64,000 nt of DNA from an uncultured delta proteobacterium (GTDB taxonomy: Bacteria > Desulfobacterota > Binatia > UBA9968): assembly GCA_963728565.1 (NCBI GenBank), contig CAVSLC010000003.1:1-64000 (forward strand), written 5' to 3'. Made by a program: the position numbers and the translations under genes. The notes under the pieces are model-generated. The model did no database searches. It had not been told where the DNA came from and saw only the letters and a program-made list of their open reading frames with translations. This document shows, piece by piece, positions 57,241 to 63,932 of the stretch; the first letter of the stretch is position 1, and every line of letters starts with the position of its first letter.

Positions 57241-57594
57241 CCTGCACCAAGCCTAAGTCCATGAGGCTGATCCGCGGTCAGTATCGTTCGAGGCGATGAT
57301 GCTGAAACGTATGCTGATAATTTTTCTGAAGTTTAGCCACACGGACGGCCGGTGAATTTAGCTTCTGTGAAGTCTCTATAGATGATGAATGTTTTTTTGC
57401 GCCAGGATTCCAGGCTGCCTACCGAGTGAACTTTGCTCCGACCGTCGTTTCCAATTCGGTGTAACGATACAGTCGATGGGCAGTAGCGAAAAAGCCGTCT
57501 ACCGATAGATTACGGAATTCATAAAGCAGCTCTCCTGGGCCGGATTAGAATTCGCAGCGCCCACTGACATCCAGAATGACATAGTCGTTGCAGG

Positions 57595-58627
57595 CTACTT
57601 CAGAATCTCTTTAGCCCGCGGAATAAGCGACTTGTCCAGGTTGAACACCTCATGGACATTGCGTTCCAGTTCAGCGCCATCGAGGGGATTGATGTCGAGC
57701 TTGGCTTTGGTCGCATCTGCCAGAAATTCCGGATCCTTCATGGTTTCCATAAAGGCGCGGCGCAGAATCTGCACCCGGTCTTTTGGCGTTCCAGGAGGCA
57801 GCACATACGGGCCGCGCCGTTGGGCCGACGCTGTGGACCAAAGCGATGATCAGTTTCTTTGCTTCCTCGGTCCTGGCGAAATCGATGGCCAAGGGCAGTT
57901 TCGGATGTTCTGCGTGCGGCTTGGCAATATTTTGTAATACGATCGTCACTTCGCCCGAACTAAGCTCCTTACTCCAGGTGGCTTTGAAGGATTCCCAGGA
58001 ATTGCAGATGCCGGTGATCTCGCCGCTGTTGAAGGCGAGTCGCACGTCGGCAGTTCCTTTATAGCCGCTGACCAGCTGCATCGGCAGGCCGATGGTCGCC
58101 GCCAAAACTTTTGGGATGTCATCTGTCGCCGAACCTGCGCCAACCCCGCCCAGCTTAACCGCGGTCTTGGAAGACAACCATTGTTCAATGGTCGTGATGC
58201 CCGTGCTCTTGGCCGCACCTAGCATGTAATTGTCTTGAGCCGGTACGCCGATAAATTGGAACTTGGTCGACTCGAATTCGACTCCCGGCTTACCCAAAAG
58301 CTGCTGCAAGAAAAGACCCCCGATAAAATGACCGATGGTCAGTCCATCGGGCTTTGCCACGTTGTACATGTGGTTGGCAGAAATCAGAAATCCGGCTCCT
58401 GGCATGTTTTCCACGGCGAGGGTGGGATTGCCGGGGATGTGTTTGCCCATATGGCGCGCGAGAGTGCGGGAGTAAGTGTCGTAACCGCCCCCGGCAGAGG
58501 CTCCGACGATGATTCGTACCGTTTTGCCCTTGTAGAACGGATCCTGCGCGTGCGCGGGAGCATACGTAAAACTGGAATACGAAAGGGTTAGCAAACCCAT
58601 GATCAACATCATCGGCGTCCGGGCCAT
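57595..58627 (-). pseudogene. TctC/Bug family substrate-binding protein with a +1 frameshift at 57809-57811
   Basis: FYKGKTVRIIVG..GGGYD..RHMGKHIPGNP..NMPGAG. Removing one C from GCGCGGCCCGTAT restores ARPYVLPPGTPKDRV. Confidence 0.85.
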
Positions 58628-58655
58628 AAGACCTCCCCATTACCTCGAGTTGTCT

Positions 58656-59678
58656 TTACTGCAAGATCTCTTTCAATTGGGTAACCAGGTTGGCGTCCAT
58701 CTTGAACAGCGCGGTGACGATTTTCTCGATTTCCTCGCCGGTCAGCGGATCAGTGTCCAGCCTCGATTTTTTTGCGTCAGCGAGAAACTCCGGGTCGTTG
58801 AGAGTATCGACAAATGCTTTGCGCAGGAGCTGCACACGGTCTTTCGGTGTTCCCGGGCCGAGTGCGTAGGGTCTGGTTATCGCGGCAGGATCATGGCCGC
58901 CGTATTTCAGCAGCTGCTTGCTATTTTCGTTGGGAGCAAAATCGATGGCATTGGCAATGTTCGGCAACTCCGGATGGGGTTTGGGATTGACTTGCAGAAC
59001 CACGGAGACATTGCCCGAATCGAGTCCCTGACGCCAGATCGACTTGATTGATTCCCATTGCCAGCAACCGCCGGCGACTTCTCCAGCTTCGGCGGCAAGG
59101 CGAACTTCAGCCGTGCCTTTGTAACCGGCGACCAGCTGAATCGGCAGTTTCAGCGCAGCAATTAACAGCTTTGCGGTATTGTAAGTCGTATCTCCGGGTG
59201 CTACACCGCCGACTTTGACCGGCGTCTTGGCGTTTCTCAGCGCATCGACCGAGGTAATGCCGCTGGCTTTGGTAAACGCGCACGCAACATTGTCCTGCGT
59301 CGGAATACCGATGTACTCGAATTTACGAGCATCAAACTCTATGCCTGGCTTGCCGATGATCTGGTTGATCACTTGATTGCCGTGGAAATTTAGAATTGTC
59401 AGTCCGTCCGGCTTGGCGACCTTGTATACGTGATTAGCCGCCACCAGACTGGCGGCTCCCGTCATATTCTCGACTACAATCGAGGGATTGCCTGGTATAT
59501 GTCGGCCGATATGACGTCCAATCACACGGGAGTAGGTGTCGAAACCACCGCCAGCGGAAAAACCCACAATCAACCTAATCGTCTTGCCCTCATAATAAGG
59601 AGCCGCGGCGCCCGCCGGGACGGCCAATAGGAAGCTAAGTATAAGCGCTGAAAAACCCTTGCCCAGGGACTTGAACAT
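58656..59678 (-). CDS. TctC/Bug family tripartite tricarboxylate transporter substrate-binding protein
   Basis: YYEGKTIRLIVGFSAGGGFD, HIPGNP, AKPDGLT, GYKGTAEVRLA, PGTPKDRV. Confidence 0.9.
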   Translation of the reverse strand: MFKSLGKGFSALILSFLLAVPAGAAAPYYEGKTIRLIVGFSAGGGFDTYSRVIGRHIGRHIPGNPSIVVENMTGAASLVAANHVYKVAKPDGLTILNFHGNQVINQIIGKPGIEFDARKFEYIGIPTQDNVACAFTKASGITSVDALRNAKTPVKVGGVAPGDTTYNTAKLLIAALKLPIQLVAGYKGTAEVRLAAEAGEVAGGCWQWESIKSIWRQGLDSGNVSVVLQVNPKPHPELPNIANAIDFAPNENSKQLLKYGGHDPAAITRPYALGPGTPKDRVQLLRKAFVDTLNDPEFLADAKKSRLDTDPLTGEEIEKIVTALFKMDANLVTQLKEILQ

Positions 59679-59735
59679 AAACTCTCCTCTAGCGAGATTA
59701 TAGTCTGCGGGAATTATTATGTTTAAGCTGCGCTG

Positions 59736-60524
59736 TCAACGGTCGCGCAGCATCTCAGCCCGAAGCTCCGCCTCCCAAGCCCGGCTGCCACCGATTTGCC
59801 ATTGGCATTGTAAATCGTGGATCTGGTTGGGGTCGGTAAATTTGGTTATCTCATCGAGCGCGGTTTTTAGAACCGCTTCGTGGCGATCGCGATCATGCGG
59901 TGGACCGAAGGTTCGGCCTACCGGATGATCGACAAAGACAGCTCGCGGCGGAGTCACCTTGCTCATTATGTCTAGAGCGGTGCCGATCACCAGGGTTGGA
60001 ATGCCGCGCCCCTCGATAACATGGGCGATGAGACCGACGGTCTCATGGCAAAACGGTCAGTAGGGCACCAGCAAGGCGAGATCCACTGCCATCTTTTTTA
60101 AATCAGCTGCGATCTCGGGGGCCAGCTCGTCTTCGATTTCTTGTGGGCGGCGAATGCCGCCCATGAAAGAGAAATGAAACGGCGAAATTGCGCCGATGGT
60201 GCCGTGCTGTGCCAGAGAGGCAAGCGCGGTGCGTGGAAAAATAATTTCGGGATCCTGTTTGGGTACCCGGCCGATCCCAGAATGGTGATCGATAATAATC
60301 GCGCCGGCGTGATCAGCCGGAATGCGCCGATAGCTCAGGTCCTCGCGCGGCACAAAGGGCTCCTGATCTTCCAGCCGCAGGGCTGCGCTCGACAAAAGGG
60401 CAATCGTTGATTGATTGACCGGCTTGGTGATCGGCGACCAAGCTTGCTTCGATGGCGGGACTAGAACGCGCGGCGGCTTGGGCGCGCCGGCCTGAGCCAT
60501 GATGGGAAGATATTCGAACGACAT
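59736..60524 (-). CDS. Selenoprotein of the PrdB/GrdB (proline/glycine reductase B) family, 262 aa, Sec at TGA 60057-60059
   Basis: An in-frame TGA joins two ORFs: DLALLVPY-U-PFCHETVGLIAHVIEGRGIPT..VTPPRAVFVDHPVGRTFG. The N-terminal half has IALLSSAA, DLSYRRIP, DPEIIFP and HFSFMG. Confidence 0.85.
60028..60046 (-). promoter_or_regulatory. Putative bacterial SECIS element
   Basis: ATGAGACC-GTC-GGTCTCAT, a perfect 8-bp stem starting 11 nt after the UGA, with GU in the apical loop. Confidence 0.75.
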
Positions 60525-60743
60525 ATTCTATCTATCCTTCCGTTCGGAGGATTATTCCCTGCGTGATCGTCTTCAACTCTTCGGACGCAGCAAACAAAGA
60601 TACAATGACACCCATCACAATCACATTCAGATTTGAGACAGCCGTGCGCTGCATGTCTCACATCGTATACAAGTCAGTCTCGGCCGGCTCTTGGCGAAGC
60701 TGGCCTTGCTCTTGCGTTGTACTCCGGCAAGGAGGAACAAACA

Positions 60744-61220
60744 ATGGATGCGCTCGAACTCTTAAAACAGGATCACGCGAAAGTTAAAGAGCTGCTGGAG
60801 AAGGCGGAAAGCGTGGAGCAAGCCAAAGAACGCACCGCCATCTTCGAAAAAATCAAAACTGAATTAGAAACTCATGCGCGGATCGAAGAAAATGTTTTCT
60901 ATCCCGCGGTGCAGAAAAACGAAGAACTCAAAGACATGGTTCTCGAGTCCATCGAAGAGCATAAACAAGTTAAGACTCTGCTGCGAGAAATGGATAACCT
61001 GTCTAAGGATAGCGAGAAATTCGAACCGAAGCTCAAAGTACTCAAAGAAAACGTCGAGCATCATGCGGAGGAAGAGGAGGAAGGAAAGATGTTTCCGAAG
61101 GTACGCAAGCTTTTTAGCGCAACCGAGCTGCAGGAACTCGGAGCGGAACTGGAAGCGGCAAAAGGAAACCGGGAGCGTAAGGCAGGTTTAAGTATTCCGA
61201 AACGACCTGTGCGACAGTAA
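60744..61220 (+). CDS. Hemerythrin/HHE cation-binding domain protein
   Basis: MDALELLKQDH, HARIEENVFYP, EEH, HHAEEEE..MFP; GGAGG RBS; weak sigma54-like TGGC-N7-TTGC at 60701. Confidence 0.88.
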   Translation: MDALELLKQDHAKVKELLEKAESVEQAKERTAIFEKIKTELETHARIEENVFYPAVQKNEELKDMVLESIEEHKQVKTLLREMDNLSKDSEKFEPKLKVLKENVEHHAEEEEEGKMFPKVRKLFSATELQELGAELEAAKGNRERKAGLSIPKRPVRQ

Positions 61221-62646: not shown

Positions 62647-63102
62647 ATGGAGATACAGTTATTGAAGCTTAGCGTGAGCGACGCGGACCTAAATCAATTG
62701 GCATCTCGAATTTTCGTCCGGCCCGACGCTATCCGTGAGATTGGTTTCGCTGTCACGCCGGAAGGCGTTCGGGTTATGGGAATCTATGAACGGGTTATCG
62801 GGATTCCCTTCCAGATGCTGTGGCAAATATCAATTTTCGAAGGCAAGGTCGGCGCGCGCATTGAGCGAGTGAGAGCAGGATTTATTAGTATAGGCTTCAT
62901 CAAAAAGTATCTTCTGGATCGTATTACTGCTGGAACGAATATCGTAAATCGAAACGGGATGCTCGTATTTGATGTTGATGCCGTTCTTGCCGATAACGGT
63001 TGGCCGGTGCGGCTGAACTTTACCTCGATCCGCTGTACTCTGGGTAATTTGATCCTCGAGAGCCGTGCGCCTGATTGCGTTCAGGAACCTGAAAACCGAT
63101 GA
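62647..63102 (+). CDS. Hypothetical protein
   Basis: 151-aa ORF upstream of yggS on the same strand; no motif recognised. Confidence 0.55.
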   Translation: MEIQLLKLSVSDADLNQLASRIFVRPDAIREIGFAVTPEGVRVMGIYERVIGIPFQMLWQISIFEGKVGARIERVRAGFISIGFIKKYLLDRITAGTNIVNRNGMLVFDVDAVLADNGWPVRLNFTSIRCTLGNLILESRAPDCVQEPENR

Positions 63103-63239
63103 TGGCTGCAGATGTAATATCTGGCACTCGATGGGAATCAGAAGGTGGTGGCAAACTCGCCTTTGATGGCTTCTTTTCAATTTCACTTGTGCTGGCCGGA
63201 GTGATTTACAAAGGTGGATGTGATAAGCATTTTCAACTT

Positions 63240-63932
63240 ATGGCAGATGTGGCGGCGAACTATCGAGAGATCGCTGAACAGATCAGGCGGGCCGCAGTTT
63301 CGAAGGGACGAGACCCGCGCGATGTTAAAATACTGGCAGCCGCCAAAGCACAAGATATCAAAGCAATCGATGCTGCCATTATGGCTGGTGTCTTGCTCAT
63401 CGGTGAAAATTACGTTCAGGAGGCGAGCCTCAAAAGAAAGAGCCTTCCCGATAACGTCGAATGGCACATGATTGGTCACCTGCAACGCAACAAGGCAAAA
63501 GCGGCAGTGGAAATCTTCGATGTCATTGAGTCTCTCGATAACGCTGAATTGGCGCGCGAGCTGGATAAGGAAGGCCGAAAAAAAAATGTCCGAGTGCGGG
63601 CGCTCATTGAGATTAATATAGGCGGTGAAGAAACCAAGTCCGGGATTGCCAAGGCCAAAGTCGAGGAGCTTTTACGCACTGTCGGCGAGCTCGACCATCT
63701 CAGCATCGAAGGGCTGATGACTGTTCCGCCTTTTCGCGAAAACTCTGAAGAAACTCGGCGTTACTTTCGTGACCTGCGCCAATTGCGCGATGAGCTGCAC
63801 AGCTTGAAATTGCCGAATGTCAACCTTAGGGAGCTGTCGATGGGCATGACGCACGATTATCTGATTGCTGTTGAAGAAGGAGCAACCATTGTGCGAATTG
63901 GCACAGCCCTGTTTGGTCCGCGGAGAACGTAG
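63240..63932 (+). CDS. yggS: PLP homeostasis protein
   Basis: GENYVQE, WHMIGHLQRNK, EETKSG, GLMTVPP, LSMGMTHDY..EEGATIVRIGTALFG. Confidence 0.95.
   Translation: MADVAANYREIAEQIRRAAVSKGRDPRDVKILAAAKAQDIKAIDAAIMAGVLLIGENYVQEASLKRKSLPDNVEWHMIGHLQRNKAKAAVEIFDVIESLDNAELARELDKEGRKKNVRVRALIEINIGGEETKSGIAKAKVEELLRTVGELDHLSIEGLMTVPPFRENSEETRRYFRDLRQLRDELHSLKLPNVNLRELSMGMTHDYLIAVEEGATIVRIGTALFGPRRT

Follow-up and report, generated by a model that had tools for sequence, protein, structure and literature searches.

In this study, we examined a gene that appears split in a 64,000-nucleotide stretch of DNA, hereafter the window (positions 1 to 64,000 of the forward strand of contig CAVSLC010000003.1, assembly GCA_963728565.1), from an uncultured delta proteobacterium placed in the class Binatia. 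Two open reading frames (ORFs) are listed on its minus strand, 60057..60524 and 59736..59990, and an initial annotation had proposed that they form a single PrdB/GrdB-like gene, in which one internal TGA is read as selenocysteine (Sec) with the aid of a hairpin directly downstream. The locus contains the following elements:

59736..60524, minus strand: complete predicted selenoprotein gene of 262 codons (ATG at 60524..60522), a PrdB-sized member of the PrdB/GrdB superfamily
60057..60059, minus strand: in-frame UGA, codon 156, read as Sec and forming the first residue of U-P-F-C
60048..60050, minus strand: TGC codon of Cys159, the C of U-x-x-C, by analogy the presumed resolving thiol
60028..60046, minus strand: hairpin of the type of a selenocysteine insertion sequence (SECIS) within the coding sequence, with a stem of 8 bp (60046..60039 paired with 60035..60028) and the loop GUC (60038..60036)
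59736..59738, minus strand: true stop codon, TGA, a terminal TGA being found in 22/22 intact orthologues

As had been claimed, the two listed ORFs share one frame that is stop-free after a single TGA, and reading this TGA as U gives 262 residues followed by the terminal TGA. The codon at 60059..60057 is the sole internal stop of the minus-strand frame 60524..59736. The proposed junction LLVPY-TGA is likewise present, the frame reading DLALLVPY-U-PFCHETVGLIAHVIEGRGIPT, and the motif around the codon is VPY-U-PFC-HETVG (U156-P-F-C159). The ratio of nonsynonymous to synonymous polymorphism (pN/pS) is 0.26 in codons 1-155, 0.14 in codons 157-178 and 0.29 in codons 179-262, so that its lowest value in the gene falls in the 22-codon stretch from the TGA to the next potential start. 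Since constraint is strongest exactly there, before any alternative start, codons 157-178 appear to be translated in the selenoprotein frame. The Cys159 residue is kept in 22/22 orthologues, encoded by TGC in 19 and by TGT in 3; a resolving role for its thiol is suggested by the UxxC motif of PrdB and GrdB, as outlined in a review (PMC13188914). Invariant residues further include D62, R66, D91 and R194.

Past the terminal TGA (59738..59678, minus strand), 19 further stop-free codons lead in frame to the ATG of the next gene, which encodes a binding protein (60524-59678 = 846 = 3 x 282). The same 19-codon run-on is seen in the closest loci (L012, L013 and L021), and stops follow soon after the terminal TGA in more distant orthologues, in which no reading frame is conserved beyond that codon. 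Because of these stops, the run-on is probably a coincidence and not a second read-through.

We then compared the UGA column across homologues. A word-indexed database search returned 801 homologues; 119 of the best 120 are 155-156 aa long and end in ...VPY, i.e. they are cut at the UGA codon, in line with the earlier expectation that standard gene callers would break the gene. Separate C-terminal fragments are also held in the databases, as found by an all-against-library search. At the level of DNA, a close set was made up of 23 genomic loci from metagenome-assembled genomes (MAGs) labelled Binatia, Deltaproteobacteria, Syntrophobacter-like and similar. In 21/23 of these the frame is unbroken apart from one internal stop, located at the UGA column, and the other two are frameshifted upstream; the codon at the column is TGA in 24/24 close loci, the window included. 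Among 151 sampled genomes of the same class, 69 contain a homologue at a match threshold of E <= 1e-20, each listed match having exactly one internal TGA, and there are up to four copies of such PrdB-like selenoproteins per genome. A more distant set of 20 matches, picked from the upper part of the class-sample table and sharing 33-73% identity, has TGA at the same column in 20/20 loci, which brings the overall count to 44/44; all 44 loci passed the locating pattern, and none were dropped.

At the Sec column, full-length homologues that are more distant still (26-34% identity) carry Cys in 22/29 cases and Ser, Gly or Thr in the remaining 7, Trp being found in none, and the wider-family consensus at the site is CPxCH. 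The homologue column thus behaves as the Sec proposal had anticipated. The sole full-length close database homologue, P0002 (259 aa), has Trp at the Sec site. We rejected this entry as a refutation of Sec, since Trp also replaces the orthologues' terminal TGA in it and is followed by 3 further residues; judging from its protein sequence, P0002 looks like a gene call made under a code in which TGA means Trp. Entries of this kind could mislead column tests that ask for Sec, Cys or Trp.

The 8-bp hairpin proposed to begin 11 nt after the TGA is located at 60046..60028 as ATGAGACC-GTC-GGTCTCAT, with a spacer of 10 nt, so that it starts at the 11th nt after the TGA. In the whole window, perfect hairpins with an 8-bp stem and a loop of 3-8 nt occur 18 times, and the chance expectation for one to start within 21 positions after a given TGA is about 0.006. 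Its conservation was assessed at synonymous sites among the 22 intact orthologues, which share 65-95% residue identity and a mean third-position identity of 51%. In this set, 91 degenerate codon columns are invariant for the residue and only 6 of them are also invariant for the codon; these six are the consecutive codons 161-166 (GAG ACC GTC GGT CTC ATC), which form the hairpin. Codon invariance is therefore found in 6/6 hairpin codons against 0/85 others (Fisher p 1.5e-9).

Covariation within the helix was assessed in 35 distinct 36-nt sequences from the 44 loci, aligned without gaps. Standard pairs fill 95% of the cells of the 8-bp helix, and sliding the partner strand by 1-3 columns lowers this to 21-39%. 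Compensatory double changes occur at three pairs (6 cells with UA to CG, 14 with GC to CG, 11 with AU to UA or GC). In several of them, a nonsynonymous change in one arm (Glu to Gln, Thr to Ser) is matched in the opposite arm by a synonymous change of the third base (CTC to CTG for Leu, GGT to GGA for Gly). None of 500 shuffles attained the observed covariation score; as the sequences are related and one of them supplied the structure, more reliance can be placed on the slid controls and on the synonymous-site test. Across the 35 sequences the loop keeps the form G-U-N (columns 22-23 being invariant G and T), and in 20/20 of the more distant loci the hairpin keeps the same register after the TGA. 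The homologues are therefore not simply two separate genes lacking a conserved hairpin: the proposed hairpin is both conserved and covarying.

In the SECIS of Escherichia coli fdhF, a stem-loop within the coding sequence begins about 11 nt after the UGA, and a G-U at the top of its loop is contacted by SelB. The hairpin described here is alike in its position within the coding sequence, its 10-nt spacer and its invariant G-U-N loop, whereas its sequence is unrelated, its loop, at 3 nt, is the shorter one, a bulged U is not apparent and Rfam gave no match. The layout of the selenoprotein gene recurs in the genome's GrdB-family gene, where a 10-nt spacer is followed by an 8-bp stem whose 3-nt loop starts with G. 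With its compensatory changes, this clade provides a particularly clear case of a SECIS within a coding sequence, and may be of use in training SECIS finders for this lineage.

The machinery for Sec is present in the genome, in accordance with what the selenoprotein proposal implied. The genes selA (607.5 bits), selB (395.7) and selD (382.3) all score above their cut-offs and lie side by side on contig C28 (34981-39495), and one tRNA-SeC, on contig C25, is the genome's only tRNA with the anticodon UCA. As selD carries one in-frame TGA, the selenophosphate synthetase would itself be a selenoprotein; the genome's further genes with an in-frame TGA encode GrdA and a GrdB-family protein, both on contig C13. 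TGA is also the commonest stop codon, ending 438/1009 open frames of at least 400 codons, and is therefore not globally reassigned. Taken with the conserved TGA, the hairpin and the Cys homologues, this machinery gives strong support to the earlier proposal of a 262-residue selenoprotein.

Concerning its family, the protein is matched best by the NCBIfam model of PrdB, TIGR04483 (120.9 bits, E 5.7e-35), with residues 25-239 covering model positions 16-231 of 238. This is an equivalog model with a curated cut-off of 300 bits, which the protein does not reach. The models of GrdB, GrdF and GrdH are matched only in their C-terminal part (positions 280-397), at 19-28 bits and under every cut-off; for selenoprotein B, TIGR01918 gave 25.8 bits against 65.45 and PF07355 13.2 against 22, and the protein has 262 aa against about 430 aa. 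Of the label "PrdB/GrdB-like", the homology has thus held, and the protein falls outside both PrdB proper and GrdB. In alignment A1, PrdB is the best match for 30/30 members and Pfam GRDB is matched by 23/30, and the natural Cys homologue P0126 belongs to protein-atlas clusters that are automatically named "GrdB family". Solved structures searched by sequence, queried with the protein or with a 30-sequence profile, yielded nothing related.

Compared with PrdB, the 26-kDa Sec subunit of D-proline reductase in Clostridium sticklandii and C. difficile, the protein matches nearly end to end, is of similar size and has an equivalently placed UxxC, and in both cases the gene tends to be cut off at the UGA. 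It differs in its score (121 against 300 bits), in that PrdA and PrdC were not found, in having TctC-like neighbours instead of a prd operon, and in its host, here a MAG of a soil Binatia/"delta" lineage and there a Stickland-fermenting clostridium. With GrdB, GrdF and GrdH (TIGR01917/TIGR01918, PF07355) it shares homology to the Sec-bearing C-terminal part as well as the UxxC motif, whereas the N-terminal half (about 220 residues) is missing here and the gene does not lie beside GrdA, GrdE and GrdC, which are on another contig. Many truncated homologues are labelled "D-proline reductase (dithiol) PrdB" by the Joint Genome Institute (JGI). Since neither PrdA nor PrdC could be found and the score falls well short of the family cut-off, the protein, as judged by sequence, is a member of the PrdB/GrdB superfamily but is to be regarded as something other than a D-proline reductase and should not bear that name.

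We further looked for the partner subunits. In the genome, which is 80.6% complete, PrdA (TIGR04480) was not found (best 17.3 bits against a cut-off of 700), nor was PrdC (TIGR04481; best 45.5 bits against 490). The genome's three PF09338 genes are part of a Grd cluster on contig C13, and their best scores are GrdG-like. Across the class sample, PF09338 occurs in 16/151 genomes; only 9/69 of the genomes with a homologue of the gene have it, and 60/69 are without any PF09338 protein, most of these 69 genomes being at least 90% complete. All nine sampled genomes of the same order that have an orthologue also have PF09338 genes (9/9), and six others of that order have PF09338 without an orthologue; these genomes, being related, do not count as independent samples. 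Where neighbours were scanned, in 8 homologous loci and in 11 close ones, a PF09338 gene was never adjacent to the gene. As PF09338 is found in only 9/69 homologue-bearing genomes, the family at large would appear to work without a PrdA/GrdE-type partner.

The Grd cluster itself (C13, 257000-276000) comprises GrdA and one GrdB-family gene (motif UGTC), each with an in-frame TGA, together with GrdC-beta and three GrdE/GrdG-like paralogues. Two of these three paralogues have no GrdB partner and adjoin genes for ABC-type (ATP-binding cassette) binding proteins. The scores of the cluster are all far under the glycine, sarcosine and betaine "exception" cut-offs.

Downstream of the selenoprotein gene, on the same strand, lie two genes for solute-binding proteins:

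58656..59678, minus strand: TctC/Bug-type periplasmic solute-binding protein of 340 aa with a signal-peptide-like N-terminus, starting 57 nt after the selenoprotein stop
57598..58627, minus strand: second, tandem paralogous TctC-like binding-protein gene, with a frameshift near 57809/57810

The neighbours of the selenoprotein gene are thus TctC-like genes and a hemerythrin-domain gene, and it is not encoded together with GrdA or a GrdE-type proprotein. In 17/23 close loci a TctC-like homologue immediately follows on the same strand, and in 3 it lies about 3 kb downstream; it was unseen in the remaining 3/23, one of which has less than 1 kb of flank. Tandem TctC-like pairs are present in 13/23. 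By Pfam TctC (PF03401), the orthologues in other loci score 27-35 bits, and the window's own copy is not detected at E 1e-5. The genome has about 7 TctA loci, which could serve the downstream binding protein.

From these findings, we consider it very likely that the locus holds one intact gene for a 262-residue cytoplasmic selenoprotein with a SECIS-decoded UGA, a stand-alone relative of PrdB and GrdB that is likely a reductase and not a D-proline reductase. We infer the insertion of Sec, the catalytic cycle, its reductant and its substrate as follows. The UGA at codon 156 would not act as a stop during translation; instead, the hairpin 11 nt downstream would serve as a bacterial SECIS within the coding sequence, whose G-U-N loop would be bound by SelB carrying Sec-tRNA(Sec), which would so be recruited to the ribosome and allow Sec to be inserted at codon 156. 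The TGA at the end of the gene, which has no such hairpin, would terminate translation. In the finished protein, a reductase action seems most likely, in which the selenolate of Sec156 would attack the substrate, Cys159 would resolve the adduct to give a selenenyl-sulfide, and a cellular dithiol system would reduce the latter again. The nucleophilic role of Sec and the resolving role of Cys are modelled on those given for PrdB and GrdB in the relevant part of a review (PMC13188914). Because tandem TctC-type genes are conserved just downstream, the substrate may be a small carboxylate-type solute taken up through a tripartite tricarboxylate transporter, possibly the ligand of the neighbouring TctC-type proteins. 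More broadly, and quite tentatively, the stand-alone PrdB-like selenoproteins could constitute a distinct family that carries out Sec-dependent reduction without a pyruvoyl partner, in this clade with a substrate delivered by dedicated TctC-type binding proteins; if true, this would represent an uncharacterised selenium-dependent catabolic or detoxifying reaction that is widespread in soil bacteria.

Several observations weigh against this interpretation, or against parts of it. The folding energy of the 76 nt surrounding the hairpin is unremarkable (z = -0.79, single sequence), and Rfam models searched against 59900..60150 with an E limit of 10 gave no SECIS family and only a chance small nucleolar RNA match. 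As a single-copy fold with such a z is uninformative, the weight of the evidence lies in the comparison with other loci, and the case for selenium in the protein is comparative throughout. In favour of the interpretation, soil metatranscriptome contigs that are about 94% identical cover the TGA and the hairpin unbroken (X15 record 7, 59839-60698; X16 record 12), and one further contig (X18 record 21) joins the end of the gene to the start of the binding-protein gene; contigs from RNA libraries can, however, contain DNA, and a contig spanning two genes is not proof of a single transcript. Given a genome completeness of 80.6%, the absence of PrdA and PrdC is to be read as "not found" and not as proven. 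The proposed cycle is borrowed by analogy from PrdB and GrdB, which depend on a pyruvoyl partner; since that partner is apparently lacking here, the chemistry may differ. Finally, the TctC link is confined to the close clade (at least 65% identity) and to L063, more distant homologues adjoin other genes (e.g. for Amidohydro_2 proteins, thiamine pyrophosphate (TPP) enzymes and cupins), and the 4.5-Mb genome contains 64 matches to the TctC/Bug-type binding protein. We rejected TctC linkage as a family-wide rule, as it is lacking in 19/20 of the more distant loci, and the association of the gene with TctC-like genes is suggestive only, given its absence from distant homologues and the number of binding-protein matches in the genome.

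Alternative explanations differ in how they read the codon and in how they read the protein. If the TGA were a real stop, the locus would contain two separate small genes or one gene inactivated by a nonsense mutation, which is how gene callers have it, with 155-156 aa in 119 of the best 120 homologues and separate C-terminal proteins in the databases. A nonsense mutation would not, however, stay the same codon in 44/44 loci down to 33% identity, and the 22 codons after it would not be expected to be the most constrained of the gene (pN/pS 0.14); together with a covarying hairpin kept at synonymous sites and Cys at the site in homologues, this makes a real stop highly improbable. We give still less credence to a genetic code that assigns TGA to one of the ordinary amino acids, Trp or Gly. 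The Trp of P0002 at the site speaks for it, but the Trp of the same entry at the terminal TGA fits a mis-chosen code. TGA moreover ends 438/1009 long open frames and 22/22 orthologues, the sole tRNA with the anticodon UCA is tRNA-SeC, no tRNA-Trp or tRNA-Gly with that anticodon and no widespread in-frame TGA at conserved Trp or Gly columns were seen in the genome, and the column has Cys and never Trp.

With the codon read as Sec, the protein could be a genuine PrdB of D-proline reductase whose PrdA proprotein gene lies elsewhere or in a region missing from the assembly. Its best family (TIGR04483, positions 16-231 of 238), its size, its UxxC, the JGI labels and a genome only 80.6% complete would all allow this, but the bit scores of PrdB (120.9 against 300), PrdA (17.3 against 700) and PrdC (45.5 against 490) are far too low, none of the 8 and 11 loci scanned has an adjacent PF09338 gene, and 60/69 homologue-bearing genomes are without PF09338, which leaves a true PrdB very unlikely. 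Somewhat less remote, yet still unlikely, is an alternative subunit of the selenoprotein B type that would pair with an extra GrdE/GrdG-like proprotein of the C13 cluster and pass its product to GrdA. The three GrdE/G-like genes on C13 for one GrdB-family gene, accompanied by GrdA and GrdC-beta, would suit such a pairing, as would the PF09338 genes in 9/9 sampled-order genomes with an orthologue and the match of the protein to the Sec-bearing C-terminal half of GrdB. Against it, the cluster is on another contig, the gene is never adjacent to PF09338 genes in the examined loci, six genomes of the same order have PF09338 but no orthologue, the N-terminal half of GrdB is missing, and 60/69 class genomes with a homologue have no PF09338; the related genomes in which both co-occur are, in addition, non-independent. 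A stand-alone selenoprotein related to PrdB and GrdB is accordingly the reading that we prefer.

"PrdB" selenoproteins with a UxxC motif have been catalogued since 2005, and the gene joins a known selenoprotein family, not a new kind. In the relevant passages of these surveys, "proline reductase PrdB" with UxxC is reported as 42 genes in the Sargasso Sea (PMC1088965), Global Ocean Sampling data are credited with 235 Sec forms and 110 Cys homologues under pfam07355 with the motif UxxC (PMC2398784), and PrdB is listed for Anaeromyxobacter dehalogenans and Geobacter uraniumreducens (PMC1794560, Table 3). Recent reviews list PrdB among selenoproteins (PMC9312934; PMC13188914), and a preprint, in its portion on the subject, refers to PrdB only as a known C. 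difficile selenoprotein (10.1101/2022.07.06.499078). With the family surveyed in metagenomes and deltaproteobacteria, our gene has the superfamily label and the motif in common, as compared by description and not by sequence; the survey passages on "PrdB" discuss neither a PrdA-less function nor a link to TctC-like genes. A literature search combining Binatia or Binatota with selenocysteine or selenoprotein found nothing, and one for PrdB-like or GrdB-like proteins found only two papers on fluoroacetate reduction in Synergistota, with nothing in the literature collection searched on this clade or on PrdA-less PrdB homologues.

These results may have practical application, as the gene and hundreds of its relatives stand in public databases as fragments of 155-156 aa, some of which are named "D-proline reductase", a function unsupported by the present evidence. 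PrdB-like selenoproteins are common in the class (69/151 genomes), mostly without a PrdA/GrdE-type partner (60/69), and because of this lack of a partner their chemistry poses a testable question on selenium use in soils.

Some further features of the neighbourhood deserve mention. A scan for promoters and terminators in 57400..60900 gave counts at shuffle level, with one promoter-like site between the selenoprotein and binding-protein genes. On the plus strand of the window, a hemerythrin-domain gene (60633..61220) is next to the selenoprotein gene only in the three closest loci, and a YggS-type (Ala_racemase_N) gene (63099..63932) lies upstream of it in 12/23 related loci. When the L021 orthologue of the second TctC-like gene is aligned, its residues 1-273 match at 98% in one frame and its residues 273-343 at 100% in a different frame; the frameshift in 57598..58627 reflects either an assembly error or a recent pseudogene. 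Relative to the approximately 7 TctA loci, the 64 matches represent a large expansion of "orphan" TctC/Bug-type binding proteins in the genome. Lastly, Sec-containing distant homologues in loci L044, L045 and L062 lie beside Amidohydro_2 (PF04909) and TPP-enzyme, cupin or glyoxalase-type genes, a recurrent context that hints at a catabolic role for those more distant paralogues.

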